Assembly: GCA_965113315.1 (NCBI GenBank)
Contig: OZ220376.1
Origin: Podarcis vaucheri
Taxonomy: Eukaryota
DNA length: 64,000 nucleotides
Strand: one strand, 5' to 3'
Positions 8,401 to 63,416 of this stretch are shown here, piece after piece; positions within the stretch are counted from its first letter, which is position 1; each line of letters starts with the position of its first letter. The notes below the pieces were generated by a model, which was given only the letters and a program-made list of their open reading frames with translations, was not told the origin of the DNA and did no database searches. Both the position numbers and the translations under genes were made by a program.

Positions 8401-8500
8401 TCTCATGCAAGTTCTGCAAGATCTCACTGGAAGAAGCCACCGCCATGCAACCTCAGTTGCTTTAGCCTGCCTCATGGGCAGGCTGGCACTGCTGGAAATA

Positions 8501-8742
8501 CAGTGGTACCTCAGGTTACAGACGCTTCAGGTTACAGACGCTTCAGGTTACAGACTCCACTAACCCAGAAATAGTACCTCAGGTTAAGAACTTTGCTTCT
8601 GTTTGAGAACAGAAATTGCACGGTGGCGGTGTGGTGGCAGCGGGAGGCCCCATTAGCTAAAGTGGTGCTTCAGGTTAAGAACAGTTTCAGGTTTAGAACG
8701 GACCTCCAGAACGAATTAAGTTCTTAAGCCGAGGTACCACTG
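8501..8742 (+). mobile_element. Non-autonomous Tc1/mariner (Tigger/pogo-like) MITE, family A
   Basis: Terminal inverted repeats (TIRs) CAGTGGTACCTC...GAGGTACCACTG flanked by TA on both sides; homologous copies at 23445, 49727 and 62841. Confidence 0.92.
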
Positions 8743-8821
8743 TACTTACTGTTTTATGATTAAATTAATTTCAACAAAAATCATTTCTCCAAACTCGGCC
8801 GGTAGTAAATAGGTACACTGC

Positions 8822-8901: not shown

Positions 8902-9725
8902 AGTGGAAGTAGTGATGGTCACCAACTTGGACGGCTTCAAAAGAGGATTAGATGGATTCATGGAGAATAAGGCTAACAATGGCTTTTAACCAGGATGACT
9001 TGGCTTGAGATGGCTTGAGAGCAGTACACGTGAAAAGGATCTAGGAGTCTTGGTTGACCACAAACGTGACATGAGCCAACAGTGTGGCACGGCAACTAAA
9101 AAAGCCAATGCAATTCTGGGCTGCATCAATAGGAGTATAGCATCTAGATCAAGGGAAGTAATAGTGCCACTGTATTCTGCTCTGGTCAGACCTCACCTGG
9201 AGTACTGTGTCCAGTTCTGGGCACCACAGTTCAAGAAGGACACTGACAAACTGGAACGTGTCCAGAGGAGGACAACCAAAATGGTCAGAGAAGCGGACAC
9301 GGAGCAATGGATTCAAACTACAAGAAAGAAGATTCCACCTAAACATTAGGAAGAACTTCCTGACAGTAAGAGCTGTTCGACAGTGGAATTTGCTGCCAAG
9401 GAGTGTGGTGGAGTCTCCTACTTTGGAGGTCTTTAAGCAGAGGCTTGACAACCATATGTCAGAAGTGCTCTGATGGTGTTTCCTGCTTGGCAGGGGGTTG
9501 GACTCAATGGCCCTTGTGGTCTCTTCCAACTCTATGATTCTATGATTCTATGACTTTGCTCCATCTGCATGATCAAAGGCAGTAATGCTTCTGAATACCA
9601 ACTGCTGGAAACCGCAGAAGGGAGAGTGCCATTGACATTGAATCCTGCTGGTGTCTGTGAGCCACTATGAGAACAGGAAGCTAGATTAGATGGGCCTGAT
9701 CCTGCATACCCTTCTTATGTTCTTC
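8902..9725 (+). mobile_element. Old CR1-type 3' end interrupted by a younger CR1
   Basis: ggcttcaaaagaggattagatggattcatggag resumes after 9556 and ends in a ttcttatgttctt tail. Confidence 0.7.
9002..9549 (+). mobile_element. Young CR1 LINE 3' fragment with internal deletion
   Basis: ORF2 peptide [18 protein letters not shown]...[19 protein letters not shown]; (ATTCTATG)n tail; 7-bp TSD ATGACTT at 8995-9001 and 9550-9556. Confidence 0.93.
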
Positions 9726-9997
9726 TTTGCACAGAAGTTAGATTATCAGAGTAGCAATATGTACATATATGTGATGTGTATTGAACCACCTATGATGGGA
9801 AGATTAAATAAAGAATTTGGATAGGCATTTTCTGTCTGTTCTCTTTGGTTGGTGTGAAATTCTAGGAGGTACCTGAACCCTTTCTAGAAAAATCAAAACC
9901 GTAAGCGCTTGATTTGTAGACTGTCTTGAAAAAGAACATAAAGCAATTTCACAACCTCGTTCCCTCATTTTGACTTTCTTTTTCTATCCTATTTCAG

Positions 9998-10157
9998 ATG
10001 ACGTTGCACCCTATTTCAAGACAGAGCCAGGCTTGCCCCAGACTCACCTAGAAGGGAACCGCCTTGTGCTTACGTGTTTGGCAGAAGGTAGCTGGCCTTT
10101 GGAATTTAAATGGCTGCACAATGGCAGGGAAACCACGGCCTTCACCAACGAGTACAC
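9998..10157 (+). CDS. SDK1: Sidekick-1 internal coding exon (equivalent to mammalian exon 2), start of Ig-like domain 1
   Basis: Polypyrimidine tract + tttcag acceptor; GTAAGT donor at 10158. Translates (D)[52 protein letters not shown](T). The [15 protein letters not shown] and CLAEG residues match SDK1 as I recall it, not SDK2 (DDVSPYFKTEPVRTQ, CMAEG). 160 nt, phase 1 to phase 2. Confidence 0.96.
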
Positions 10158-17752: not shown

Positions 17753-18076
17753 AAAAGGGTAACGGCCCCTGGGCGGTTAAGTCCAGTCAAGGACAGCTAT
17801 GGGGTTGTGGCGCACATCTCGCTTTCAGGCCAAGGGAGCCGCCGTTTGTCCACAGACAGCTTTCCGGGTCATGGTGCCAGCATGACTAAACTGCTTCTGG
17901 CACAAGCCACAACCGTACCTATTTATCTACTTGCACTGGTGTGCTTTTGAACTGCTAGGTTAGCAGAAGCTGCGACAGAGTAACAGGAGCTCACCCCATT
18001 GCAGTGATTCAAACCACCAACCTTCCAATCGGCAAGCCCAAGAGGCTCAGTGCTTTAGACCACAGCGCCATCCGCC
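17753..18076 (-). mobile_element. Sauria SINE, older diverged copy
   Basis: Homologous to 2526-2875 (gtacctatttatctacttgcac, cacagcgcca); degenerate flanking duplication tgttgtaataagctaa / tgttgttatagctaa. Confidence 0.85.
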
Positions 18077-19703
18077 TGTTGTTATAGCTAAGCAACACTC
18101 AGCATGTCCAGTGTCTGAATGGAAGATCTGCCTGAGATCTCTGTGAAAGACACTTCGAGCTTTCCAGAAGCAGAATGAATGTGATTTATTAAAACAGGAA
18201 ATGTTTTCACGAGCCAAATACTAAGGTGTATTGGGTGAACTGTTTTAGTCTTATGTGCTGCTACTATTGCTACATCTAAACTTAGTTAATTGTTATTAGG
18301 GTTACTGAGAATGTATAAGAACTTATTTGAATACTTTTAAATGACTATAGAGATATACTCTAAAACATAATGTATAAACTGAGGACTCTGCCTTATAGAG
18401 AGTCAGACCATTGGTCCAACTGACTCTGTATTGTCTGTATTAGGGAAATAAACAAATTCATGAAAGATAAATAAATTTACATAAATAAATAAATAAATTT
18501 ATTTATAAATGTAAATGTATTAACTTTCATAACTTTTGAATTAATTAATTGAGTTGTTCATTGGTGAGTACTTTGGGGAAATAAAGAAATTAATTTTTGC
18601 TGCATTATTTTATTTTGGTGCATTTGCAAATTAATTTAAAATGTTGCTGAGTTTGTAATAGATTTTTGTCATGATGTATTTTCTCAATTAACAGAGTGTA
18701 ATATTACAATAATCAGGATGTGGGCTTCCAAAAAAGAAAAAAGAAAAAAAGAGTTCAAGCTAAAAAGGGGTGCTTGCAGAGGAACCACCATTATATAATA
18801 TTTGATTACTTTGGGCTTGTTAATCATCATCTGGGCTTGTGACAATCTCACTGAAATGCACTGCTATAGTAGATTTATGTGCTCTTCTGATTTTGAGTTT
18901 TGCAGGGTACAGATTGAAGTGTCATAAGAAACCATGAAAATTGGTTTAACCAGAAATCATGGCAAGATGCAAAAAATTAAACACCTGTCCTGGCAATGAT
19001 GGCTCTGGAGAACTGCCTTCAGCTCTCTGCATCTTACAGAAGGGAGGAAATGAAGATGGGGTAGAGGAAAGCAGAACAGGCAGGATGTGTGTTTGTGGAA
19101 GCCTATTGAGAAAAGGAAGACAGTACTCATTGTGATCATTTTTTCTTAATCATCCGTTATCTTTTTTCAGTACTTTTATGAGTTCAGTTGATTGTGCTAT
19201 ACACTTTTTTTAAAAAAAAAAGACTTCAAAAGTGGGGATGTTATGTTGCTGAACATCTTCCCCAATATCATCACTTAGATTTCTGTTTGGCTTCTTGTCA
19301 CAACTGGACAAGAAATTTGCTTTCCTGCCTTGTAGATGGAGGAATATTTGAGTGCTAGAGGATGCTCAGATATGTCTCTATAACGCTAGTATGGAATTCC
19401 ATCTATTTATTAATGGTTCTTTAAGAGGAAGTGTGATGTAATTCATCTCAGATTTTCACATATACCTTTTCGTACAGCATGTTGGAGAATCGTGCAAAAA
19501 AAGAAAAAAAAAGAATTGAGGACTGATAAATCATGGACAGAGTGAGTGAAGATCTACATCAGGAACAAGGGAGGCAAATAAAGAGCTACATTGGGATCTG
19601 TTGCTCCTGTGGATCCTGCTGCCTGGGGCTCAAACTGTTTTTGAGAACAGATATCAAAGTCCAAGTACATGTTTTAATTGTGATATCCCTTTCTGTCTTA
19701 CAG

Positions 19704-19810
19704 GTACGTTATCCCATCCTTGCAAAGATCTGATGCTGGTTTTTATCAGTGTGTTGTGAGGAACAGAATGGGGGCACTCCTGCAAAGAAAATCAGAAGTT
19801 CAAGTGGCAT
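19704..19810 (+). CDS. SDK1: Sidekick-1 internal coding exon (exon 3 equivalent), second half of Ig1
   Basis: ctttctgtcttacag acceptor; GTATGT donor at 19811. Translates [35 protein letters not shown](Y), containing the Ig DxGxYxC motif. 107 nt; phases 2 to 1 join the flanking exons in frame. Not in the ORF track. Confidence 0.96.
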
Positions 19811-21777
19811 GTATGTATGATTGGCATTTATTTCAAAAATTTCCTAATTTTTGCTCATTTTTCCAGATTACAATGTCATAGTCATTTTCCTGACCATTAG
19901 CTCAGGCCAGTTCCTTTGTCTCAGAAAGGAATAAAGTTCTCCCCATTTCATCTCACAGAGTATGCTTAGTATGAGGTGAGTGCTTACCTGGACATTAATT
20001 CCATCTTCCAAATATATCAGTTGACAATGCAGACAGTTGTTATGCCTATAGTTTGGCAAGCTAAAGACCACCAAGGATAAGCCGCCCTTTAATGTGAAGA
20101 GGTTAGGAAGCTGCTAAAAATGCACATACAAAGCACCCAAAAGAGAGGTCAGGTTTAAATTCAGCAGAAATTAAATTCAACTGGAAATTAATGGGTTGGT
20201 TGACAGTCAACTACTCCAGTAAGACTGCGTGAGCCAACTCATTCAGGGCTGACATGTCCAAACCTCTGATTGTAGAAACTGCCAAGCTTGACCTCTGATT
20301 AAATACTTGACTTTTACTTGGGCATAAGTGTTGATTTTCTCAATTATAGATGCCAAGACATGTGCCTTGTAAAATGAGTCTGATCTCATAATCAGCCAGT
20401 GCTTTGGGGTTTTTTATAGCCAATATTCTCTCCAAACTTAAAAAAGTTTCCATCTGAACTCTGAAAAACATGACTGTAGATATAAATTAGTGTACATATT
20501 CTAAACTGTGATTCAGTTGTTAGATTTCCTTTAAGATTTTCTAGCAAAAAACCCTATATCAGTATTTCTGTTTCACCTTTCTGCTCATTCAAGGGGTATT
20601 CAAGGTGACTCACAAAGTAAATTGTCTTCCCTTCCTCCTCTGGTTTTTCTCCATTTCATTTCCCCACCTAAGCATCACTAGGCAGGGCTGTTTAGGCCAA
20701 CCTTTTTGGCTGATTAGGCCAAAAACATTTATATCTACTTCTGCTGAAAAGCTCATTGGCTAGATAAGCCAACTTTTCAGAGAGCAGTTGCTGAAGGCTG
20801 TACTGGGTAGTTGGGGTTTATACTGTTCAAGGCTCAGATTATTTTGCAGATGGAGGGCATTTGCAAGATAATCTTCATCTTCTGAATTATTTCAGTCCAA
20901 CCAGTGTTGGAGCTGTCTCCCGCCCTCTCCTGCCTTGTTTCCTTATAACTCAGGACCAAACTTCACATTATGGAGACTAGCAGGATCTTAGCTTAAAATC
21001 AGCCCAAACTGGTTGGACTGGAGCAGTGGTATTAAACCCCCTTTCCCTGTGTTGTTTCCTCAATCTAAACTATTCCTCTCAGTCACCTGAAGGTGAGAAG
21101 GGAGGCCTTACCTTGTCACACACACCCATTGAACCTCAGAACCCCAGGCGGATGAGGGAGTTTGGCCTCAAAGGAGGCCCCAATCTCACCCTCTGAACCA
21201 CAAAGTCCAAGAAGTGAGTCTCGGGGCTGACCCATAACCTGAAAGGTGACTACAGGGCATCACTAGGCTAAACCAAACTTTCTTTTCCCACACCTAAACT
21301 GCCCAAAGTGCCCAAATCTAGATGAATAACCTATTTAAACAACACAGCAAACCAACAAACACTCTGTCCTGCTATTGAGTATGAAGTAAGTAAATTTTCC
21401 CAATCTGCATTTTTGCAATCCAAAATGAGGATTGGGGGAAAAATCCTACATGGCCCCCCCAGTGGTGACCCTGAAACAATAGGGTGACAGGGAGGGAGAG
21501 TGAAAGCTGCTGCAAACTCAGAGGTTGGAGGGAAAGCAGATTGTCCCTTTTAGAGGGTCCAAGCCCTGCCCCCCCAGACCACCTTAGGAATGCACCCATT
21601 GGTGCCAAGGATTTTCCCACTGTGCCTCGCTTGCAAAGGTGCCCAGCCTTCTAGGCACCATCTAAGCCTTTTGACTGAAGGTCCTTCTTTCTATATTGGA
21701 GAACTTTGAAACTGGATTTTTTTTAAAAAACTTAATCTGTATCAGTAAGTTAGTAAGTTTAGAAATTATGTCCCAAG

Positions 21778-23066: not shown

Positions 23067-23442
23067 CCGTTTTCGCCCGAATATAAGCCGTACCTGAATA
23101 TAAGCTACACCTTTAAAATTGGAGGGGGTGGGGAGGAAAAATGAAAAAATATCCGAATATAAGCCACTCAATTCCTCACTGCTCCTGGCTGCATTCTGGG
23201 GGCGGGGGGGGGGCTACACTGTGTTGCTGGCAGCCTTTCCCTTTCCTCGCTCTCTCCCTTCCCAGCCTTGGGGGAGAGGATGAAGAACTATTCATGGGGC
23301 AGGCGCCACTTTGCCCCTCTCCTGGCACTGTTTGCCCCATGCCACTGGCTGCATACCGTAAGGTCACAAATATAAGGCACACTTTACCTTTTCACAGTCG
23401 GAATTTGGGGGGAAAGTGAGGCTTATAATCAGGCCAACACAG
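23067..23442. mobile_element. Tc2/pogo-like non-autonomous element
   Basis: TIRs CCGTTTTCGCCCGAATATAAGCC / GGCTTATAATCAGGCCAACACAG, TA on both sides, internal repeats of GAATATAAGC. Confidence 0.8.
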
Positions 23443-23444
23443 TA

Positions 23445-23670
23445 CAGTGGTACCTCGGGTTACAGATGCTTCAGGTTACAGACTCTGCTAACCCAGAAAT
23501 AGTACCTTGGGTTAAGAACTTTGCTTCAGGATGAGAACAGAAATCACACGTTAGCGGCGTGGTGGCAGTGGGAGGCCACATTAGCTAAAGTGGTACCTCA
23601 GGTTAAGAACAGTTTCAGGTTAAGAACGGACCTCCAGAATGAATTGAGTTCTTAACCCGAGGTACCACTG
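23445..23670 (+). mobile_element. Tc1/mariner MITE, family A
   Basis: CAGTGGTACCTCGGGTTA...TAACCCGAGGTACCACTG with TA TSD. Confidence 0.92.
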
Positions 23671-24304
23671 TATATCGTCCTAGAATATAATTATTCTCAT
23701 AGGGTATGATAGAGGAAACCAGTTTCCAGTGTAGGCACTAGTTGTGCTAAATCCTCTGATAAGGGAATTGACAGAGAAAACTTATACTCGCATTACACCA
23801 GGACTGGAGAGACACTGCCGCTGTTCCAAGCAAATCCCTGCCATACTGTGCTCAGTGTGGAGGGGAGGAAAAAGCTGCACACAGCAAAAAATATAAAGAC
23901 AGGAGAAAAATGGCAGATACATCCACAGCTCTCCTGGCAATACCGCCACAGCCCACCAGCCAATCACTGTACTAGGAGGGACATCCACAGGCCACCCACA
24001 CAGAAAGAGTCAATGAATATATAATGGAGATGCTCTCTCCCCAGTACACCTCCTGCATCAGCACAGCAGGCAAAGCACAAGAGGACACCACTGTGCACCC
24101 ACACCAGCAGCCCCAGTGGGACAGCCAGAAATGACCCAGGCTTCCTTCCAGGCATTTAAATATAAGAACATAATAATAAAAGACATTGGATTCTTATCTC
24201 ATTATACATGACTAAGCCATTTCTCACCTTCTCACCCCTTGCCTTTTCCTGTAAGACCTATTACAGTCGTTAAGAGTCGTCAACAGGCTCATCTCAGCTA
24301 TCTG

Positions 24305-24391
24305 CCAATCTCCCATTCCCACCACCCTTCTGAGTAATACCCCTCCCCACCTTCTCACTATATAGAAGGATCTGGCAACTTCTGTTTCAGT
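24305..24391 (+). promoter_or_regulatory. Candidate Pol II core promoter of the Penelope pLTR
   Basis: CCAAT at 24305, TATATAGA at 24359, initiator-like TCAGT at 24387-24391; the first T of TATA is 30 nt before the Inr A (24389). Confidence 0.55.
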
Positions 24392-24429
24392 GTATCTGAA
24401 GAAGTGTGCATGCACACGAAAGCTCATGC
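24392..24429 (+). ncRNA. Minimal type-I hammerhead ribozyme motif
   Basis: GTAT-CTGAAGA-A-GTGTG-CATG-CACAC-GAAA-GC-TC-ATGC: CUGANGA and GAAA cores, 5-bp stem II, palindromic AGCU in place of stem III, stem I GUAU/AUGC (one G:U). Predicted cut after C24425. Confidence 0.72.
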
Positions 24430-24484
24430 CAAGAACTAACTTAGTTGGTCTTTAAGGTGCTACTGGAAGGAATTTTTTTATTTT

Positions 24485-24640
24485 GAACATAATAATAGTC
24501 TTGCTGGATCTGGCCAATGGCCCTCCTAGTCCAGCGTCCTGTTCTCACAGTGGCCAACCAGATGCTTGTGGGAAACGTGCAAGTGGGACTCAAGCTGAGG
24601 AGTGCCCCCCCCTCCTGTGGCTTCCAGCAACTGGTAATCT
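24485..24640 (-). mobile_element. Old CR1-type 3' tail, target of the Penelope insertion
   Basis: gctggatctggccaatggccc...tagtccagc...tgttctcacagtggccaaccagatgc; reverse of the 9600-9725 type of tail. Confidence 0.7.
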
Positions 24641-24659
24641 GTTTCTCCTCAAAAACAGT

Positions 24660-25365
24660 CAGTTCCCCAAGGCCTGTTCATGGAAGGACAGCAAGGGGGG
24701 AAGCCAGTCTGACTTCTCTAGGGAGGGAATTCCAAAGCCTGGTAGGACTGAGAGCAGGATGGGTTCATATGAGGGAATAGAGTCTTTCAGACAGCCCGGA
24801 CCTAAGCCATATGGGGCTTTGTAAGTCATAGCCAGGGACACAGGTGGTGCTGTGGGTTAAACCACAGAGCCTAGGACTTGCCCATCAGAAGGTCAGTGGT
24901 TCAAATCCCCGCCATGGGGTGAGCTCCCGTTGCTCGGTCCCTGCTCCTGCCAACCTAGCAGTTCGAAAGCACGTCAAAGTGCAAGTAGATAAATAGGTAC
25001 CGCTCCAGCAGGAAGGTAAACAGCGTTTCCGTGCGCTGCTCTGTGGCTTAGTCATGCTGGCCACATGACCTGGAAGCTGGCTCCAATAAAGCGAGATGAG
25101 CGCTGCAACCCCAGAGTTGGTCACGACTGGACCTAATGGTCAGGGGCCCCTTTACCTTTACCTAAGTCATAGCCAGCACTTTTAATTGTGCCTGGAAACA
25201 GACTGGTGGCCAGTGGAGAAGTTGTCATGTGTTCCCTATAACTAGCCCCAGCCAACAATGGCTCTTTGAACCAGCTGAAGTTTCTGAGCACTTTTCAATG
25301 GCAGCCCCACATAGAGTGTGTTGCAGTAATCCAAACAGGATGCAATTAAGGTGTGTGTCACCGTG
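24660..25365 (-). mobile_element. L2 LINE fragment interrupted by a SINE
   Basis: Minus peptide MTYKAPYGLGPGCLKDSIPSYEP; ttgcagtaatccaa is the reverse of the L2 LDYCN motif. Confidence 0.75.
24835..25162 (+). mobile_element. Sauria SINE nested in L2
   Basis: tRNA-like head and ACCTTT tail; 13-bp TSD TAAGTCATAGCCA at 24822-24834 and 25163-25175. Confidence 0.92.
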
Positions 25366-27598: not shown

Positions 27599-27746
27599 AC
27601 ATGGGGAATTTCCAGGATGAGGACCAGAGGAAAACAGTGTCTGAAGGGCAAGCCACAATCCTAAACTTTCCACACATCACAAGCTACCCCAGACCACAAG
27701 TGACTTGGTTTAGAGATGGGCACAAGATTATACCAAGCAGCAGAAT
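27599..27746 (+). CDS. SDK1: Sidekick-1 internal coding exon (exon 4 equivalent), Ig-like domain 2
   Basis: cttctctttgcag acceptor; GTAAGT donor at 27747. Translates (Y)MGNFQDEDQRKTVSEGQATILNFPHITSYPRPQVTWFRDGHKIIPSSR(I). 148 nt, in frame with the previous exon. No further SDK1 exon was recognised up to 64000, consistent with a very long downstream intron. Confidence 0.96.
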
Positions 27747-28581
27747 GTAAGTTAAAGTAAATTATTGTTTGAAATATGACTAATTGCACTTGATAATGCT
27801 GCTTACACGTTAAGCACCCTAATTAAGGTCTGGAGATAATAAAGCAAGCTAATGCATCTGTATAGTGGAGATATGTGGGTGTTTTAGGACTGGGTTTAAA
27901 ACCCTTCAGCAGAATAATTTGTGTGATAATAATATTTTGGCCTACTCCTGTAGCAGCCTGATCCTTGCTCTTTCTAACCATTGTCTTGGCATGCTTTTAG
28001 GAAAGCACACAATTATCCGACTAGCAATGATTTCCGGTATTTACCTATAAAATGGGGTTTTGCATACTGTGCTGCTGTGCTTGATACTCTTTTCTTTGAC
28101 AATGAAATGGCAATTAGTTTTTGTTTTCTTTTATACTCTTTTACCCTGCAATGACAGTGTTTTTTTCCTCTTTGGTCTAATTAGCACTTCACCCATTCAT
28201 AGTGAAACAGTTGTACTCTGATTACCTAAGCATTGTCTCTAGGTGTACCAGTGTTCTCAATTTTGACACATCTAAAATGCCAATCTGATTTTAACTTGAG
28301 CTTTACCCTTCCTGTTAATTAGGGTATTTAAAAACATATTTTAGTCCTCCAGCATTTCCCTTATGTAATTTAGTTAGCAATTAATGGATCATCAAGGCTT
28401 TTTGTATGTAGTGGATCAGCAATGTCAGAAGAGCAATGTACTTACATCCAGCTGTCCAAGGAATGTTATAGGAGGATTGTGTGTGTAATAGTTGACTGTA
28501 CCTCCTTGTCTCTTGCCGTTAAACCCTCTATGACCGCCCCCCTCCTTATCTCTCCACTCTTATATCATGATATGTCTCTGG

Positions 28582-31760: not shown

Positions 31761-32055
31761 GAATCATAGAATCATAGAGTTGGAAGAGACCACAAGGGCC
31801 ATCGAGTCCAACCCCCTGCCAAGCAGGAAACACCATCAGAGCACTCCTGACATATGGTTGTCAAGCCTCTGCTTAAAGACCTCCAAAGTAGGAGACTCCA
31901 CCACACTCCTTGGCAGCAAATTCCACTGTCGAACAGCTCTTACTGTCAGGAAGTTCTTCCTAATGTTTAGGTGGAATCTTCTTTCTTGTAGTTTGGATCC
32001 ATTGCTCCGTGTCCGCTTCTCCGGAGCAGCAGAAAACAACCTTTCTCCCTCCTCT
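31761..32055 (-). mobile_element. Young CR1 LINE 3' fragment
   Basis: Minus peptide [66 protein letters not shown]; possible 5-bp TSD ATGAA (31759-31763, 32056-32060). Confidence 0.93.
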
Positions 32056-33978: not shown

Positions 33979-35691
33979 AGTGAAAGATCAGTTATTCTGG
34001 GAAGCAAAAGCCTCCATGCAGTATTTAGCCAGGTTCCTCTAGCAGCGAAAGAAGGAATATTCTCAAGAGAGAGCGCACACATTATTGTGGTTTTGAGGGA
34101 TGGAATGAGGAGGACAAGTTTAGCTCTGTCCCATATCATCTACCAACTGTGGCAAGTTTCTCACATTGCCTAATTATGGAGTCAGCATAGTTGTACTCCA
34201 TGGGAAAAGAGGTTACTTGTTCATTGAGACATCCTGATCTTTTATATTGGTGGTGCATAGCAAACTTGAGCAAACTGGCTTGCAGCTCCCGGGCAATTTG
34301 GCTGAAGAGTGGATATTCCACATTAATTCTTTCCTGTTAAGGCTGTTCTCCAGGCTCCTGTTAGTTAACATTGAACTTTTGATTGTGAACTTGCCTTAGC
34401 ACAGCTTATCAGTAGCATTTGATAAATACCTGTCTTAGCAAAGCTTATCTTTGAGTTCTCCTGTTGTGTATTTCTACAAATATCAAAATATTGTTTTGAC
34501 TTTTTCTAAATTGTGGAAATCTAGATACCTTCATTGTCATAGTGCACTGTAAAGTGATAGATATTAGGCTGCTTCTGAACTAATTTATTGGCTTTTGCAT
34601 TAAACTGCTTTGGATTATTTTTTATTAATTATGCTGCCCAGTGCTTTGGTAGTCATTTCTCATATTTATTAAATAGTTCTTTAATGCATGCTGTGCTTGA
34701 AATGCTTCATCTAAAGGCTCCCTTGTGCTTGCTGGATCACTGCTCTGAAGATCGGAAGTGAAGTTATATCTTTTTAAGACTTTATCTAGAAGGTGTCTAT
34801 AGAGAAGTAGAATGCATGATTTGCTCCCTTCTTAAATCCATCCACAGTAAATATTCTGCACTGCTTTCATCCATTTGGTACTTGCTGATTTCCTTGAGGA
34901 TTTTCTGATACACCAGCTGTTGTGGACGCCACCCCTGCTCAACTGTGATAGGATGATTTACCATTCTTGTGCCAGGAATGTAGTAATCCAATTTACTAAT
35001 TTTGATCTCTTCATTACATGTTATCATTTTAAGCTCTTTAAGTTGTTTCAGCATCTTTTGGGTTTGCTTATATGTTTCACTCCTTATATTTATAGACAGA
35101 AAAAACTCACTAGGTGGTTGCTTTTTTATTTGAGTCGTGCTGATATTTAAATTAATTTACAGTCTTCAGTATCTGAAAGAAAGTGCCTGGTTATTAGTTT
35201 TTTTCTTCAAGAAAATCTGCCTTCTAGTAGTTAATGGAATTATTTTTGGTATAGAACAAGTTCAGTTCAAGTTATTGTTTGATAATCAGTAGCATTTGAG
35301 ATGTATAACTTACTTTATGACTAGTTTGCTAAGGCAACCAGAAGAACGATTAGTAAAGCATTTTTATCAGATAAGATCTTTTATATAACTGAACAGATGG
35401 CCAAGTTTTTCCTAATTACCTTGCACAGAAAAGGGCAACTGACCATATTAACAAAACTGGAGAAACTGTATTTTAACTCTGCATTTTAACCTGAATGGGT
35501 CTTATGACTGTAATAAAGTTATGGATTGCCGGGCAAAAATTATCAGCAAATGTAGCTCATCAAAAGTGACAGAGATATTTCATTCTCCTTGGCTTCTTTG
35601 CAAGAACAAGGAAGTCATCAGAATCACCTCATTTGTATTTCTTCTTCAGCTGCATGATGGGTGTCCAAAGGCTGCCCCGTGCTGTCTGGCA

Positions 35692-35941
35692 TAGGTAAAG
35701 GTAAAGGAACCCCTGAGTGTTAGGTCCAGTCGTGGATGACTCTGGGGTTGCAGCGCTCATCTCGCTTTACTGGCCAAGGGAGCCGGCGTACAACGTCCAG
35801 GTCATGTGGCCAGCATGACTAAGCCACTTCTTGCAAACCAGAGCAGTGCACGGAAATGCCATTTACATTCCCGCCAGAGCGGTGCCTATTTAGCTACTTG
35901 CATTTTGACATGCTTTCGAACTGCTAGGTTGGCAGGAGCTC
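35692..35941 (-). mobile_element. Sauria SINE, 5'-truncated
   Basis: aggtaaaggtaaagg tail; body collinear with 2526-2770. Confidence 0.9.
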
Positions 35942-37895: not shown

Positions 37896-38007
37896 GAATT
37901 AAAAAATTCCTTCCAGTAGCACCTTAAAGACCAACTAAGTTAGTTCTTGGTATGAGCTTTCATGTGCATGCACACTTCTTCAGATACCAACACGGCTACC
38001 TATCTGT
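37896..38007 (-). mobile_element. Short Penelope-like insertion: inverted pLTR joined to a plus-strand tail
   Basis: Reverse complement of the 24392-24480 pLTR, then caacacggctacctatctg; 8-bp TSD AATCTAAA at 37888-37895 and 38008-38015. Confidence 0.85.
37950..37987 (-). ncRNA. Minimal type-I hammerhead ribozyme motif
   Basis: Minus strand reads GTAT CTGAAGA A GTGTG CATG CACAT GAAA GCTC ATAC: intact core, perfect 4-bp stem I, one G:U in stem II. Confidence 0.68.
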
Positions 38008-45333: not shown

Positions 45334-45355
45334 ATACCTAGCTGAAACAAAATTT

Positions 45356-45441
45356 TAAAAAAATTCCTTCCAGTAGCACCTTAGAGACCAACTAAGTTTG
45401 TTATTGGTATGAGCTTTTGTGTGCACGCACAATTCTTCAGA
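45356..45441 (-). mobile_element. Penelope pLTR fragment with decayed hammerhead
   Basis: Homologous to 37900-37987; on the minus strand the GAAA core reads AAAA, stem II has a mismatch and the 5' strand of stem I is lost. Confidence 0.8.
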
Positions 45442-47085
45442 CAGTGTCTCTCCATCTCCGGAAAAGTAAGGGAGGTTTTAGGAAATTGAAAAGGACCAAC
45501 AGGAAAGGTAGTCTTACAACTTGAAAGAATGAACTCTAAATCTAATTAGACTCAAATTGTAGAGTGGAAAAAGCAATGCACTCTATCTCCAGGGCAAGAT
45601 GACCAACCCAACATGGCCAGTGCTGCTAGCTTACAAAGCCCAAACTCAGCTCTCTTTCTCTGTCATTCTGTGTCTCCGTTCCCTTTTCAGTCTGAGACAC
45701 AAAACTGCAGAATATTGTTCTCTGCTCGCAGCTGGCTCTCCTGCTCCCCTGCCCCTGCTAGAGGCAACAGGGTGCCCACCATTACCCAGCCATCAAATTG
45801 TAGTTTCTCTAACAAAGCATGTGTCTCACAACTTGGCCCACTGACCATAACCCTCAGCTGGCCAAACCCCAGATCTTAGAGCAATACATTCACTTCTCAT
45901 GCAGTGCCAAATGTCATTTTACACCTCATTAGCTATGAAGAGAAAGCAGAGGATGCTTGCTTTTCATTGTGAACTGTTTTCATGCATGGTTCCTATTGTA
46001 CACCGCTTCAGTAGTTTTTGGCTATTAAGCAATATATAAATCTGGAAAAATGGAATGATTTGGGGAAGCACATTCAGTGGTATGCATGAAAGAAATGCAT
46101 ACTGGGAACACCTCATCAACATTGTCTCTGATGGATTCTTCTTACTCTCACCTCTGGTTTTTATGTCTTATGTATGAAAATGGAAGATGGTTGATCCTAC
46201 TGAAGTCTGCATTTGATTTTAGAGAAAGAAGCAGTTTATCTTGATTAGTACCAAATGACGCCTGCCGGTGCTCTAAAATCTTTGTTGCTGGCTGCCAGCC
46301 GCCATTTATTCTTGTCCTTCTCCTCCTTTAGGACTCCTGCTCTACTAGACACAGAATGTGAGACTTTCTTAATAATGATCACTGGTTCAAAGCACTGATT
46401 ATTTTAAAACTTCAGGTCACATTTTTGGGCAATCCATCATCTATTGTTCCCATGGAAACAAAAATGGGAGGGAGCATTGAGAATGCAGAGTTTATTGGGG
46501 AGCTTGTAAATTTTAGTTCTGGCAATTGACTAACTATAGATGCTTTTCTTTCTTTCTCTTTTAGTGTCTGCAGATATTGGAACTATCCCAATTTTGAATC
46601 CCACTACAGATTCATTTTGGAATTACATTAATTAAAAATTGTGAAGCAGACAAAAACATTTTTTTTACTTTCTCCATGGACAATCTCTCTCTCTCCCCCC
46701 CTCTCTTGTTGAGATGTTGATGAATAGAGGATGATGAATACAGAGGTGTATATTTAAAAAGTAATGATTGCCAGGTCAAAAACTTTTTCCAGGTTAACCT
46801 TTGTCCACTTCTACAATGGTGGCTAATAAATAAATCCCATGCTCTGTGTATCATCAAAACTTGTAATGGAGCAATATAGATTTACACTGGGGAAAGAAAT
46901 AGTATTTGTTCTTGCACCTGTTTCCCATTTCTGTTGTCATTCCTTTGGAGGATAATAGCAAATTTGTGTCCCTCGATGTCTTCTGCATGTGATTATGACG
47001 TCATTGAGAATATTAACTCTCCCTGTGTCTGAATGTTTTAGAGGGAAGGGGGACAACTTTCCAAAACAATAACAACTACCAGTTA

Positions 47086-49726: not shown

Positions 49727-49958
49727 CAGTGGTACCTTGGGTTAAGTACCGGTACTTAATTCGTTCCGGAGGCCTGTTCTTAACCTGAAACTGTTCTTAA
49801 CCTGAAGCACCACTTTAGGTAATGGGACCTCCTTCTGCTGCTGCGCCGCCAAAACACGATTTCTGTTCTCATCCTGAAGCAAAGTTCTTAACCTGAGGTA
49901 CTATTTCTGGGTTAGCAGAGTCTGTAACCTGAAGCGTATGTAACCCGAGGTACCACTG
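49727..49958 (-). mobile_element. Tc1/mariner MITE, family A, opposite orientation to 8501 and 23445
   Basis: CAGTGGTACCT...AGGTACCACTG with TA TSD. Confidence 0.92.
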
Positions 49959-52900
49959 TATTGGTTTTATTCATTACCATACATCACAAGGTATCTAAGT
50001 GATTAGAGTGAAGTAAATTGGGCTGAGAGGCAGTGACCGACTGGCCCAAGGTAGCCAGTGAGCTTGATGGACGGATGGGGACTAGACTCTGTCTCTCGTG
50101 GTCTGACACCCTAACCACTAGACCACAATGGCTTAATTCACATGATAAACTTTTTATAGTCTGGGGTTCCGATACGTTGTCTGTTGCTTATATGGGGCTG
50201 TAGATTAGAGCTAGAAAATAAAACACAACTTAATCCAGGAATAATTTTAAAACACTACAACCAGCCATACGTGCATAGTCACAAACTAGATGACTCTTGT
50301 TGTCCCTTTCAGGTCTACAATTCTATGATTCTAAAAATAAAGACATGCTTTATGCTGGTTTGTAAGTATATATTTACTATTTTATGGAGCAGAAAACAAT
50401 GGAAATACAAAGAAAATTCACGGAAAATTCACAAAAGGCAACAATTCTGGCCCAGACCAGTGTGATATTTGAGGGCAAATATAATATATGGGCTTCTCAG
50501 AATTAGGGATAAGCCACTGATAGTGTTTCTGCCTTTGCACTGTGCTCCTCCTTCCCCAAACAACTTGGGAGAATTCTTGCTGTGGGCCAGGAAGCAGAAG
50601 CAAGAAAGGCTTGCCATATCCTCCCCAAACACGTTCAACTGAGGCCTCTCCCAAGCAGATGTATGTTCCACATGCAGGCAGCAAAAATAAAAATTAAAAA
50701 ATGGGGGAAATTAAAATAAAACCAGAGCAGCAAGAGGGGGATTCCCATGTAGCTTCTTCCACCCCTGCATTTTCAAAAAGTTCATCAAACAGCTGCTTGT
50801 TGATGGTTCCATACAGCCAGCAGGCAGAAAAATGGTTGACAGGTGATTCCCACACTTTCCCTCCCAACCCAACATACTTTTTTTTTTTAATGAAGTCTCT
50901 CAAGTAGCTGCCTGCTACAATACAGCTGGCAGGCAGCAAAATAGAGCAGCAAGCAGATGCAACCGGCACATCTTTCTATAACTATATTCCCATAGTAGGC
51001 AGGACTTAACCTGCTGAATTTCTGCTTGCCATACAACAGTTAAAAACTCAAGAATTGTTCCCCCTTCCATTCCTGAACCAAAGCCTAGGCTACCATCCTA
51101 TGCCCACTGACCTGGGAGGAAGCCCAATTACCATAAGAGATTTACTTCCAAGTAGATATGCATACCATTGTACTTTCAGTTAATTATACAGGGGATTCTT
51201 AACAAGGGCCTGTTTTTTTTAGTTCCTGCACAGCAGGATACATGCCTAAACCTCTTAGCAAAGTTTTCATATTTGTCTTTTGCTGGTTTTTTTTTTTTTA
51301 AATATCCACCCACATTTCTTGGGACTACCTGATCTCAGACGAACCCCCCACAGGCAAGCTGCACCCTTGTTGTTAGAGGGAAAGGAAGAGCAAACTATGA
51401 AGAGTTCAAGGACTATAATTAGAGAAATAGGAAAAGCACACTCAAGAGGAGGGAAAACAGCTGTTGTTTAGGACCCCAGGGCTTACTTTTTGCTGGGTGT
51501 CAAAACACTTATCAATCACAGCTCTGATGTCACTCATTAGAAAGCGCTGACAGGCAGGAGCAGCTAGGCTGACTCATATCACAGAAATTGCTTAGGCTGG
51601 TTTTTCTGCATAACTTTAGAGACTTCTTAAAAATGAAACCTCAGAGTCTGGGGCCCCTGCTGGGGTGCCAATGAAAGCCATTGTCGGTACCATGGGTCCA
51701 CAGGAACTGGGGTGGCAATTCTCGCCTTAGTATTCTGATACAGTATGACAGTTTTGTTCTTGTTTCTGATATCAGGTGACATCTTAATTTTTACCCCCAA
51801 CATGGTAGGCAGTGTTATCCCTATCTTGTCTCTACAGTGAGTGAAAAGGTTAATCCTCGCCACAAAACACCTGTTCTTCTTGCCTCTGCTTCCTGCTGCT
51901 TTGTTTATTCTCTGCCTGGTATTTTCACTTAACTATATGGCAGCCAATAACTGCACTCTGAGGGAACTAAAACAAATGTTTGGTTCATTTTTAAATTACA
52001 TTGTATTGCTTTGTTCTAACTCTCCCTTTAAAATAAACATTGAAAGTAGAATTATTGATGTGTGTTTTTTTCTTTTAAAATAGAGTTGCATTTCATTTAG
52101 TTCAGATAATTTTAAATGGTCCTTCAGCAAAAGTAAATCAATTTTTGTACCATATAACTTTCAATTACAGTCTTTGGAGTGAAAGAACAGCATGTTTGAA
52201 AGAGCTTAAAAAGATCTCAGCAAGATTTTCTTACATAGTCTGCCTGAAATCTGGGAAAGGTTATTATTATTTTTTTATTCCCAGGGAAAACCCATCTAGT
52301 TAGAAAGCCAGGCGTGTGAGTGAGAAAAACAGTTTAAACCCCAGTCACATGCTTTAAATTTAGGTCACATCTTACTAGTTTCTTACACTTTCTTTTCTTT
52401 TAGTCCCTCAGTAACAATGTTTAAGGAAATATCGTTGAACAACAACAACAAAGCCGGGGTGGGGTGGGGAGTCCTAAATGCTTATGAAACAACTAGTGCT
52501 ATCCCAGCCTGCAGCTTATGGGCAGGAGTGAATTTGCTCCATGTCCTCCCCGCTTGCAACAGATGAAGATTGAGTGAGAGGTGTCAACATTGTCAGCACT
52601 CATCTGAGAGGATGGGCAAATCAAAGGAAGGTTGTAAACTGTTGTAAGAGGACACTTCCTCTCTTCCTCCTTAGCATTTGGTTTATTTAAACCATTTATA
52701 CTTCACCCTTTAGCCAAAAAAAGACTGCCAGAACAGCTTGTAAAAATCAGTAGGAAAAAGCTGTGGGAAGGAGGAGGAGGAAGAGGAGGAGGAAGAAGGC
52801 TAGCAAACCCTTATGGCTCCAATGAGACAAGTACATAGTGCTGTCTACAGATTTTGTCTATCTAGGAGAGGGCACCCCACCCCAGATCAGATCTGGGAGC

Positions 52901-53533: not shown

Positions 53534-54385
53534 ATCCACATGTTTCCTATGCTGTCAGATAATGCCAGAAGATCCAAACCATATAGAAGAAAACTTATGT
53601 TTTGGCTTCTTCCACATGGCCTGGAGCTTCTCCTGCCACCGAGCAGCAATGATTCCCATGCCACAAAATTAATGTTGGAAAAGAACCTTATGCCAATAAA
53701 TGTTGCCATCTAAGATACTTGAATAAAATATAAATAACATAAATAGAATAAAGATATTTAAAATATCCAGAGCTGTGACCCCTCTGAGGCATTGTATATA
53801 TCTGATTAATGGAGACAAACTTTGACGGTACCATTTCAAATGTTATCCTGAACAAATATATTCAATAACATAATTTTTTTTCCTTGAAGCAATATTTAAA
53901 AGGGAGACAAAGCTGAAAATTCTGCTTAAGGTCCTTTCATTACACATTTTTCTTGTTCTTTTTCCTTTTCCTTTCAGTAACAGGAATGGTTAGGAGAGAG
54001 CAGGGCTGCATTCCACAAGGGTACATAATATCTTATGACATCCAGCTTAAGGAGAACTCATAACTCATGAATGCCATAGCTGTAAAACAGCTGAGTTAAG
54101 GGGCCATTTTTAACCTGAGATAATAAATTGTGCACCAAGACTTCACTTACTGTATTAAAAGGGCACCTTATAGCACTAGACAATGAAGATGTGATGCCAC
54201 TGTGCATTCAGCTGTGTTAATATAACTCAGGCTGCCTTTATGTGCCATCAAAACACAGTATTTTTCCTTTCCCACAAAAGCATACCTGTAAATAGAAACA
54301 GATGGGTAGCCGTGTTGGTCTGCCATAGTCAAAATAAAAAAATTCCTTCCTGTAGCACCTTAAAGACCAACTAAGTTAGTTCTTG

Positions 54386-54423
54386 GTATAAGCTTTCGTG
54401 TGCATGCACACTTCTTCAGATAC
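54386..54423 (-). ncRNA. Hammerhead ribozyme motif, left arm
   Basis: Reverse complement of 54428-54465. Confidence 0.65.
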
Positions 54424-54427
54424 AGGT

Positions 54428-54465
54428 GTATCTGAAGAAGTGTGCATGCACACGAAAGCTTATAC
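54428..54465 (+). ncRNA. Hammerhead ribozyme motif, right arm
   Basis: GTAT CTGAAGA A GTGTG CATG CACAC GAAA GCTT ATAC; the cleavage-site nucleotide is U here, versus C in the other copies. Confidence 0.65.
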
Positions 54466-54524
54466 CAAGAACTAACTTAGTTGGTCTTTAAGGTGCTACA
54501 GGAAGGAATTTTTTTATTGTAAAT

Positions 54525-61630: not shown

Positions 61631-62840
61631 GACTCTGTCAGATTTCAGTGTGGGTATGTTTAATTTAAGACAAAGGCGAAGAACCAGTAAACATGTAAGA
61701 TGTACTCCACTCCTACTCTATCTTGCTCTTGTGATGCACACCAAGATAAAGTACTGTACTGATTTGAAGAGCAAACAATCGCTTTGATGCAAAATCAGGA
61801 GATAGCATCAGGCACCTGAAACTTCTTATTCTCTTACAATGTTACCTCTCTATGTAAACTTCTATGAGTATGAAAATCTTTAATTTTTTCCCCTGGTGTG
61901 ACCTTCTGTGCTACAATATCAAAAACTTATTAAAGCAAAATAGATGGAGAATGATGTTAGGAAACCCCAAGCCTCTCAATTAGCTCAAATTTCCAAGTGA
62001 TGGCTTGAGGACTCATATTGAATGCTAAGGCAGCCTCACTTATAGCTCCCTGTGATCCAGAATAATTGCACATATCATTAGCATTCAATTAACACGAGTT
62101 AAATTTCTCTAAGTACTGCTAACTTGGAAGACCCCATTTATTGATGTACTGCAATAGATTCTCCTAATTTGATGGCTACCAATGCTAGACATCTATGCTG
62201 CTTTAACTGGCCTGTAGAAATGAAATTTCTACTCCTTGTCTGCCAATTCTCTAATGAATGCAAGATGGGGCATATTTTACCATATTTAGAGTGAGAAGCT
62301 CTCATGAAAGTCACAAATGATCTCCTTGAGGTTCTTTGTTCTTAATTTATTTCATCTCTCTGTTGCATTTGGCACTGCTGGCAACCACCTTTATTTCCTC
62401 CACCAAACAAATTTCTAGCACTTAGCTATCAGTTTATCTTCTTTCTCTTTCACAGCCTCCCTTGAGGTGCTCCCTGTTTGCTCACGGTGTTTCGTAAGGT
62501 CTAGCCTTCTGCTTACTCTGAACTGGGAGTTGCTTGGTGTGACTCAGTTTCCCTGAGCACACACCAAACATTTTACATGTTTCATACATGTACTGGTGAA
62601 TGAGCCAGGTGAGTCATCAGACCCACCTGAAAAGCATCCATTAGACTGAACTGAAGCCCACTGTGGATTTCCTATGAGGCAGAGCAAGACAGCAGCAGCA
62701 GGAAACAGATGCTGTTGGGTAAAGAGGAGCACCGAGCTATTAGAAGACAGACTTGTGGGTCATGCAACCTATCCTGTGCCTCCACCCCACCACCAGCTAG
62801 TCTGTTGCCCCCCACTGTGCTAGAGTGCTACAGAGTACTA

Positions 62841-63082
62841 CAGTGGTACCTCGGGTTAAGAACTTAATTCGTTCTGGAGGTCCGTTCTTAACCTGAAACT
62901 GTTCTTAACCTGAAGCACCACTTTAGCAAATGGGGCCTCCTGCTGCCGTCGTGCCGCCAGAGCACGATTTCTGTTCTCAACCTGAAGCAAAGTTCTTAAC
63001 CCGTGGTACTATTTCTGGGTTAGCAGAGTCTGTAACCTGAAGCATCTGTAACCTGAAGCATCTGTAACCCATGGTACCACTG
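62841..63082 (-). mobile_element. Tc1/mariner MITE, family A
   Basis: CAGTGGTACC...GGTACCACTG with TA TSD; carries the duplicated 15-bp TGTAACCTGAAGCATC-type unit also present at 8511-8552. Confidence 0.92.
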
Positions 63083-63416
63083 TATTGCCAGTGCTGAAGT
63101 TACGTTGGACTTCTGTAAATGAAATAGACATGAGTGGGTGCCATCTTGTCCTTTTGCTCAGGCAGTCCCCACCTCTCAAATTTGTCATTTTGGGGAAAAG
63201 TGATGACCTGGTGGTAGTGACCCAACTCAGTGTTTAATTAGATGAAACAGATGATCCTCTCCAGTCTGGATTTGGGGCTGAGACATGTTTCAGGTACATG
63301 ACTCAATTATACTGCTAAATCTAGGATGTTCTTGTCCTATAACCTGCCTGGGTGGGTCAACTGTTTGAGTTCTGCATGTAAACTGCTCCTTGGAAGAGAA
63401 TCCTTGGAAGTAAATA

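Follow-up and report, generated by a model that had tools for sequence, protein, structure and literature searches.

A probable 5′-truncated Penelope-like element end with a putative promoter and an intact minimal hammerhead motif in an SDK1 intron of the lizard Podarcis vaucheri

EN+ Penelope-like elements carry just one open reading frame (ORF), which encodes both a reverse transcriptase (RT) of the telomerase-like type and a GIY-YIG endonuclease. Their insertions are described as having inverted 5′-truncated pLTRs, a one-sided tail of 30–40 bp and short target-site duplications (PMC8557442, PMC3846280). PAc (Poseidon_Ac) of Anolis carolinensis is a lizard Penelope-like element with a pLTR hammerhead, for which both the protein and cleavage have been studied (Frangieh et al. 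2024, PMC11167929). The PAc protein makes a nick in each strand and primes internally, at two sites that set the tail; hammerhead cleavage requires this protein. In that study the cut site coincided with neither read starts nor read ends. Pen2a_Av, a low-copy element of the rotifer Adineta vaga (Arkhipova et al. 2013, PMC3846280), has an inverted 5′-truncated pLTR, a 31-bp one-sided tail and target-site duplications of 8–10 bp. A minimal hammerhead (min-HHR) of the turtle Chrysemys picta bellii is given as a row of Fig. S3 by Cervera and De la Pena (2014, PMC4209133), and is unmarked in that figure as coming from a recognisable full element. The CPEB3 ribozyme (PMC10274809), a self-cleaving motif on the sense strand of an intron, was the model for an earlier idea about the locus described below; it is single-copy and monomeric, with a half-life of 2–3 min. 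Publications already cover the motif class and its placement in pLTRs, as well as the anatomy of the insertions and the idea of a dimer. Literature searching, with most subscription journals and Repbase outside its scope, found no account of the lizard family described here, nor of inverted copies or stubs ending at a transcription start.

The window, which is the whole 64,000-nucleotide stretch of contig OZ220376.1 (P. vaucheri assembly GCA_965113315.1) that was analysed, contained four insertions of this hammerhead family, designated A, B, C and D. The host gene was SDK1, encoded on the + strand. The best match of the 27599 exon among solved structures was Sidekick-1, and 13 of the 150 proteins used as queries gave exons near 9997–10155, 19699–19815 and 27599–27747, with none beyond these to the end of the window. 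Insertion A was in the intron preceding the 27599 exon and the copy at 54428 in the following intron. A first-pass annotation had placed a module at 24305–24484 in the sense orientation of the SDK1 pre-mRNA, which was borne out by the + strand SDK1 exons found on both sides of it. Our main reading, to which we give a probability of roughly 85%, is that insertion A is likely a 5′-truncated Penelope-like end, and that its intact hammerhead motif and likely promoter belong to the element itself and are probably inert passengers in the SDK1 intron. The features of insertion A and the adjacent exon were as follows.

24166–24178, unstranded: target-site duplication, left copy (13 nt, exact direct repeat of 24485–24497)
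24179–24484, + strand: insertion A, a 306-bp 5′-truncated retroelement end, likely a Penelope-like pLTR lacking the optional tail (target-site duplication, depth step)
24179–24211, + strand: a run of ten codons closed by a stop (KDIGFLSHYT*), probably the final residues of the element ORF (translation)
24305–24391, + strand: putative core promoter, with CCAAT at 24305, TATATAGA at 24359, TCAGT at 24387 and a predicted +1 at 24389 (motifs, 5′ ends of short arms)
24392–24429, + strand: minimal type-I hammerhead motif with an intact core and a predicted cut at 24425/24426 (motif scan, comparison, folding)
24449–24465, + strand: strand of a rival helix, predicted to pair with 24389–24403 (−11.4 kcal/mol) and to mask stem I and the CUGA box
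24485–24497, unstranded: target-site duplication, right copy (13 nt, exact)
27599–27747, + strand: SDK1 exon (Ig domain), between two sense hammerhead copies

The left edge of insertion A was also visible as a step in summed contig depth (not taken as copy number), from ~130 on the unique flank to >1 million from 24193. Insertion A alone among the family copies in the window keeps the upstream region; no antisense arm adjoins it and its hammerhead core is intact. The ORF in the window amounts to the 10 terminal codons. They may resemble Neptune-type C-termini, and membership of the Neptune clade, which is defined by RT phylogeny and a Zn-finger-like linker between RT and EN, is our guess. A metagenome scan with this ORF end gave 0 loci and thus no full element with RT and GIY-YIG. 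Because that ORF was not found, it is the hammerhead together with the anatomy of the insertions that makes 24179–24484 likely to be Penelope-like. As in EN+ Penelope-like elements, there was a pLTR with a hammerhead, an optional tail at one end (about 32 nt on one arm of insertion B, partial in C and missing in A), inverted 5′-truncated copies (B and C) and short target-site duplications at AT-rich sites. Insertion A sits at the edge of a second high-copy repeat, at 24498–24600, which we take by resemblance to be a CR1/L2-type end. One contig from a related species ceased to align at 24165, immediately ahead of the left duplication, which hints at an empty site (a joint additional to those listed).

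The complete hammerhead core, 5-bp stem II, 4-bp stem I and AGCU in place of stem III that had been annotated were all recovered in insertion A. CTGAAGA was at 24396–24402 (C3 at 24396), stem II at 24404–24408/24413–24417 with a CAUG loop, GAAA at 24418–24421, the palindromic AGCU at 24421–24424, C17 at 24425 and stem I at 24392–24395/24426–24429. One of the four stem I pairs is a U-G wobble private to insertion A; most family reads have an A at 24428, and the wobble still keeps the pair. The motif matched the min-HHR consensus core CUGANGAH ... GAAA ... UH, with the extra nucleotide before G10.1, the G10.1-C11.1 pair and both stems present, and the palindromic 15.2–16.2 (AGCU) stands in for stem III. 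Stem II had a predicted probability of 0.87–0.98 in short contexts. A minimal-hammerhead descriptor matched the window 4 times but found nothing in any of 100 Markov shuffles (both strands), so the hammerhead of insertion A is not a chance match; BLAST added a fifth, damaged copy. Among the five window copies there were 0 compensatory changes, pair-keeping wobbles were found once in A and once in C, and pairs were broken in D. In a covariance-model search for hammerheads, proposed as a check with the annotation, Rfam matches to the whole window at gathering thresholds, and to 24100–24700 at E up to 10, included no hammerhead model.

Comparison with the Chrysemys row (PMC4209133) revealed its core, CUGAAGAA, to be identical to that of insertion A. 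The two also share the extra nucleotide before G10.1, G10.1-C11.1, a 5-bp stem II, a 4-bp stem I, the GC palindrome at 15.2–16.2 and similar flanks (PMC4209133). Aligned by eye, they differ at two stem pairs by compensatory changes, from C-G to U-A in stem I (family majority) and from G-C to U-A in stem II. The analysis as a whole supports 24392–24429 as a minimal type-I hammerhead of the Penelope-like kind, for which self-cleavage is predicted. Stem II of insertion A together with its loop (24404–24417) forms a perfect 14-nt palindrome, for which intermolecular pairing was predicted at −25.2 kcal/mol, whereas the turtle loop II is non-palindromic (PMC4209133). Pairing of this palindrome between two molecules may nucleate the active dimer or compete with it.

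The promoter motifs were likewise found where they had been annotated, with CCAAT at 24305–24309 (−84), TATATAGA at 24359–24366 (30 nt to +1) and TCAGT at 24387–24391, the predicted +1 being the A at 24389. The TATATAGA TATA box meets a relaxed consensus only, and relaxed CCAAT+TATA+Inr triples occurred 5 times in the window and 1.8 times per shuffle. This frequency is near chance, and the motifs were rejected as stand-alone evidence of a promoter. The annotated +1 near 24389 stood better on other grounds. All four short arms (three independent insertions) begin just inside it, at 24390, 24391, 24392 and 24395 (+2, +3, +4 and +7), and the predicted pLTR layout of Pen2a_Av is likewise a TATA box, 20 bp and an Inr-like TCACT (PMC3846280); Drosophila Penelope is described as having no TATA box (PMC2377424). 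In each of the two DNA runs the summed depth stepped up ~2.5-fold at the 24382–24408 bin. Among the joints listed (12 of 34), 7 concerned the hammerhead region, of which 5 fell on 24391–24396. Because the short arms begin at +2 to +7, a start near 24389 is supported at the level of the family; promoter activity of insertion A itself is a prediction. Alternatively, the 5′ ends at the edge of stem I could have arisen where copying stalled at RNA structure, with no transcription start involved.

The remaining insertions were as follows.

54299–54517, unstranded: insertion B, a head-to-head single event (12-bp target-site duplication at 54287 and 54518)
37896–38007, − strand: insertion C, an antisense hammerhead arm behind an inverted tail piece (8-bp target-site duplication; C11.1 to U)
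45354–45444, − strand: insertion D, an older antisense arm (core damage G12A and G10.1U)

Target-site duplications were present on three of the four insertions, being 13 bp in A, 12 bp in B and 8 bp in C; none of 7 bp or more was found for D. The first-pass annotation was correct that a plus-strand copy is present at 54428, across the 27599 exon from insertion A. It had left out that this copy belongs, as one of two arms, to a perfect-type inverted repeat of ~97 bp, and that two further antisense copies lie between the sense copies. Insertion B consists of the tail and antisense arm (54299–54424) and the sense arm (54426–54517), the arms being identical at 93 of 94 positions. In the SDK1 pre-mRNA it is predicted to form a ~97-bp hairpin (−173 kcal/mol), a candidate substrate for RNA editing. 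An extra G (54425) lies between the arms, whose first bases correspond to +2 and +3 relative to the predicted start; cap copying might leave such a base. An ATG in the tail at 54306–54318 (− strand) is a possible start of the element ORF. The PAc ORF instead starts at stem II (PMC11167929), and in the window family the ATG of loop II leads to a stop after 9 codons. In insertion C, a short microhomology at 37986–38007 joins the inverted distal tail piece to the hammerhead arm, inside the 8-bp duplication. Insertion D has a 5-bp micro-hairpin at its 5′ junction (45440–45450), which may be an inverted arm of very small size with its centre close to the predicted start.

The copies decay like neutral DNA, with G12A in D and C11.1U in C. 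Every window copy spans the cut site, and the templates were therefore uncut RNA. PAc likewise has uncut-RNA templates and AT-rich targets, and its two internal priming sites yield an optional tail, as in the window family, which is known here from sequence (PMC11167929). Pen2a_Av, for which the promoter is also a prediction, shares the inverted 5′-truncated pLTR, one-sided tail and short duplications with the window family (PMC3846280). Unlike in Pen2a_Av, the inverted arms of the window family break at the predicted +1 (PMC3846280).

The family was very abundant, with 26447 and 14704 matching contigs in two DNA runs. Two RNA runs from a related species, of which ~12% and 6% were sampled, represent the family and not the SDK1 locus, and they held no reads on the unique flanks of insertion A. 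Of the matching RNA reads, 95% and 94% continued into unlike sequence. Coverage of the hammerhead motif (24409–24435) was nearly equal on both RNA strands (399 and 347 in one run, 225 and 198 in the other). In one of the RNA runs, coverage of the upstream part of the family was biased towards one strand (about 60 versus 7–18), and loose read ends behind 24479–24486 matched the optional tail. No pile of read starts or ends above threshold was found at 24389 or 24425/24426 at family level in the two RNA runs, where bins of 27 nt and a one-fifth threshold could leave partial cleavage below detection. A>G or T>C difference sites numbered 49 and 34 in the RNA runs and 14 and 14 in the DNA runs, and C>T plus G>A sites were similar across the RNA and DNA runs (26, 28, 24 and 23). 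The excess is the pattern expected of double-stranded RNA editing, and is a hint of it in a comparison where individuals differ and the second repeat is included.

These observations suggest the following scheme for copying. RNA made from the pLTR promoter of a complete tandem element would begin at about 24389. The hammerhead would then lie at the RNA 5′ end, where the rival helix is predicted to mask it. By extension from Anolis and Schistosoma experiments, unmasking would come when the element protein binds and a second hammerhead is supplied. Reverse transcription would begin at two internal positions of the RNA, which lie roughly 95 and 125 nt from +1, as in the published internal-priming mechanism, in which two sites set the tail (PMC11167929); two 3′ ends, with and without the tail, were observed among copies and reads. 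If the first pLTR of the RNA were primed, copying would run off at the transcription start and leave ~95-nt stubs, either single or head to head (B, C and D), the latter forming palindromes with the start at their centre. Longer copies that retain upstream sequence, such as insertion A, would come from priming on the last pLTR. The abundant stubs may be run-off products whose ends mark where transcription of the element starts. In the predicted +1 transcript the rival helix had an energy of −11.4 kcal/mol, which 8 of 500 shuffles equalled. Stem I was weak against almost any flank, with a probability as low in 139 of 500 shuffles, and its low probability was rejected as evidence for a specific off-switch. 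Since stem I is weak against most flanks, masking of the hammerhead core by the rival helix in the +1 transcript is a hint from folding.

The idea modelled on CPEB3 was that insertion A and the 54428 copy pair in cis within the SDK1 pre-mRNA and cleave the intron co-transcriptionally. Both copies are sense with intact cores and the AGCU palindrome, and minimal hammerhead dimers show some cleavage in vitro (PMC4209133), but published dimers cut poorly even as adjacent tandems (PMC4209133). At this locus the sense arm of insertion B would be held in the −173 kcal/mol hairpin with the arm just transcribed, leaving predicted stem I and II probabilities of ~0. Dimer cleavage has reportedly been studied by Lunse et al. 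(2017). Helix III of the proposed dimer was predicted at −2.5 kcal/mol, against −135 to −157 kcal/mol for A with each of three antisense copies, so that each sense copy has much stronger antisense partners available within that pre-mRNA. The copies are also 30036 nt apart and in different introns, the intron of insertion A ending 3173 nt past its cut site; at mammalian rates of 3.5–4.1 knt/min (PMC10274809) the partner would arrive ~7–9 min later, versus <1 min to the intron end. In addition, the Anolis motif did not cut without protein (PMC11167929), and slow intronic hammerhead cuts left splicing running (PMC2995048). Unlike the CPEB3 ribozyme, the motif of insertion A is a repeat copy that would need a dimer partner and probably protein too. 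Pairing in cis is unsupported on these points and extremely unlikely. Cutting in trans would take place in element-expressing cells, where the protein would refold insertion A and element RNA would complete the dimer, with occasional trimming of SDK1 pre-mRNA. The intact core, the missing adjacent antisense arm, the protein assistance of the Anolis motif (PMC11167929) and the upstream strand bias (one RNA run), which is compatible with element transcription, favour it. Insertion A, however, lacks the tail, which may hold part of the protein-binding site, and family-level read ends show no pile at the cut site, in agreement with the Anolis report (PMC11167929). We consider cutting in trans very unlikely, and the hammerhead of insertion A likely does not cut SDK1 RNA.

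Two further explanations concern the element itself. Its promoter could be active in place, giving an intragenic transcript from 24389 that could splice into the 27599 exon. Insertion A keeps its upstream region and Drosophila Penelope 3′ pLTRs can drive downstream exons (PMC2377424), but with a TATA box of relaxed consensus and promoter triples that are common, such activity is unlikely. Somewhat less probable again is a reading of the element as a hammerhead SINE or retrozyme, which would be non-autonomous, in place of a truncated Penelope-like element of the autonomous kind. Stubs of ~95 nt make up most copies, and animal retrozymes have been proposed to descend from pLTRs (bioRxiv 10.64898/2026.07.22.740005). 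Against this, insertion A opens in an apparent ORF end, and the tail and inverted arms are Penelope-like. Tandem head-to-tail units, by which non-LTR retrozymes are recognised, were absent from the window, where copies are dispersed or head to head, and a tandem retrozyme was rejected. Insertion A is best read as a probable truncated Penelope-like end.

Other repeats were observed in the window. Two copies of a 261-nt repeat (9288–9548 and 31761–32021) are in opposite orientation in the SDK1 pre-mRNA and 99% complementary; this pair is very young and flanks two exons. An element of ~230 bp with terminal inverted repeats has four copies (8492–8744, 23440–23672, 49754–49963 and 62839–63091), and is presumably a non-autonomous DNA transposon. 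SINE copies in both orientations, which we take from their resemblance to be Sauria SINE, were present at 24834–25169, 2133–2876, 17862–18042 and 35687–35939.

The SDK1 locus itself carries little weight, being one intronic copy of an abundant repeat. There is a very small chance that sense intronic copies are latent cut sites, which would refold and dimerise in trans where element protein and RNA are expressed. If this were true, trans activation of intronic copies by the element protein would be a new route from a retroelement to host pre-mRNA, and a Penelope burst would introduce nicks into pre-mRNAs from many lizard genes, among them SDK1. Latent cut sites would then set a host cost and an orientation bias so far undescribed for Penelope-like elements. 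Insertions A, B, C and D together are a compact natural series, which suggests that both the head-to-head palindromes and the most frequent stubs stop where transcription of the element begins. If true, stub ends at the start would link published internal priming to the unexplained inverted insertions.
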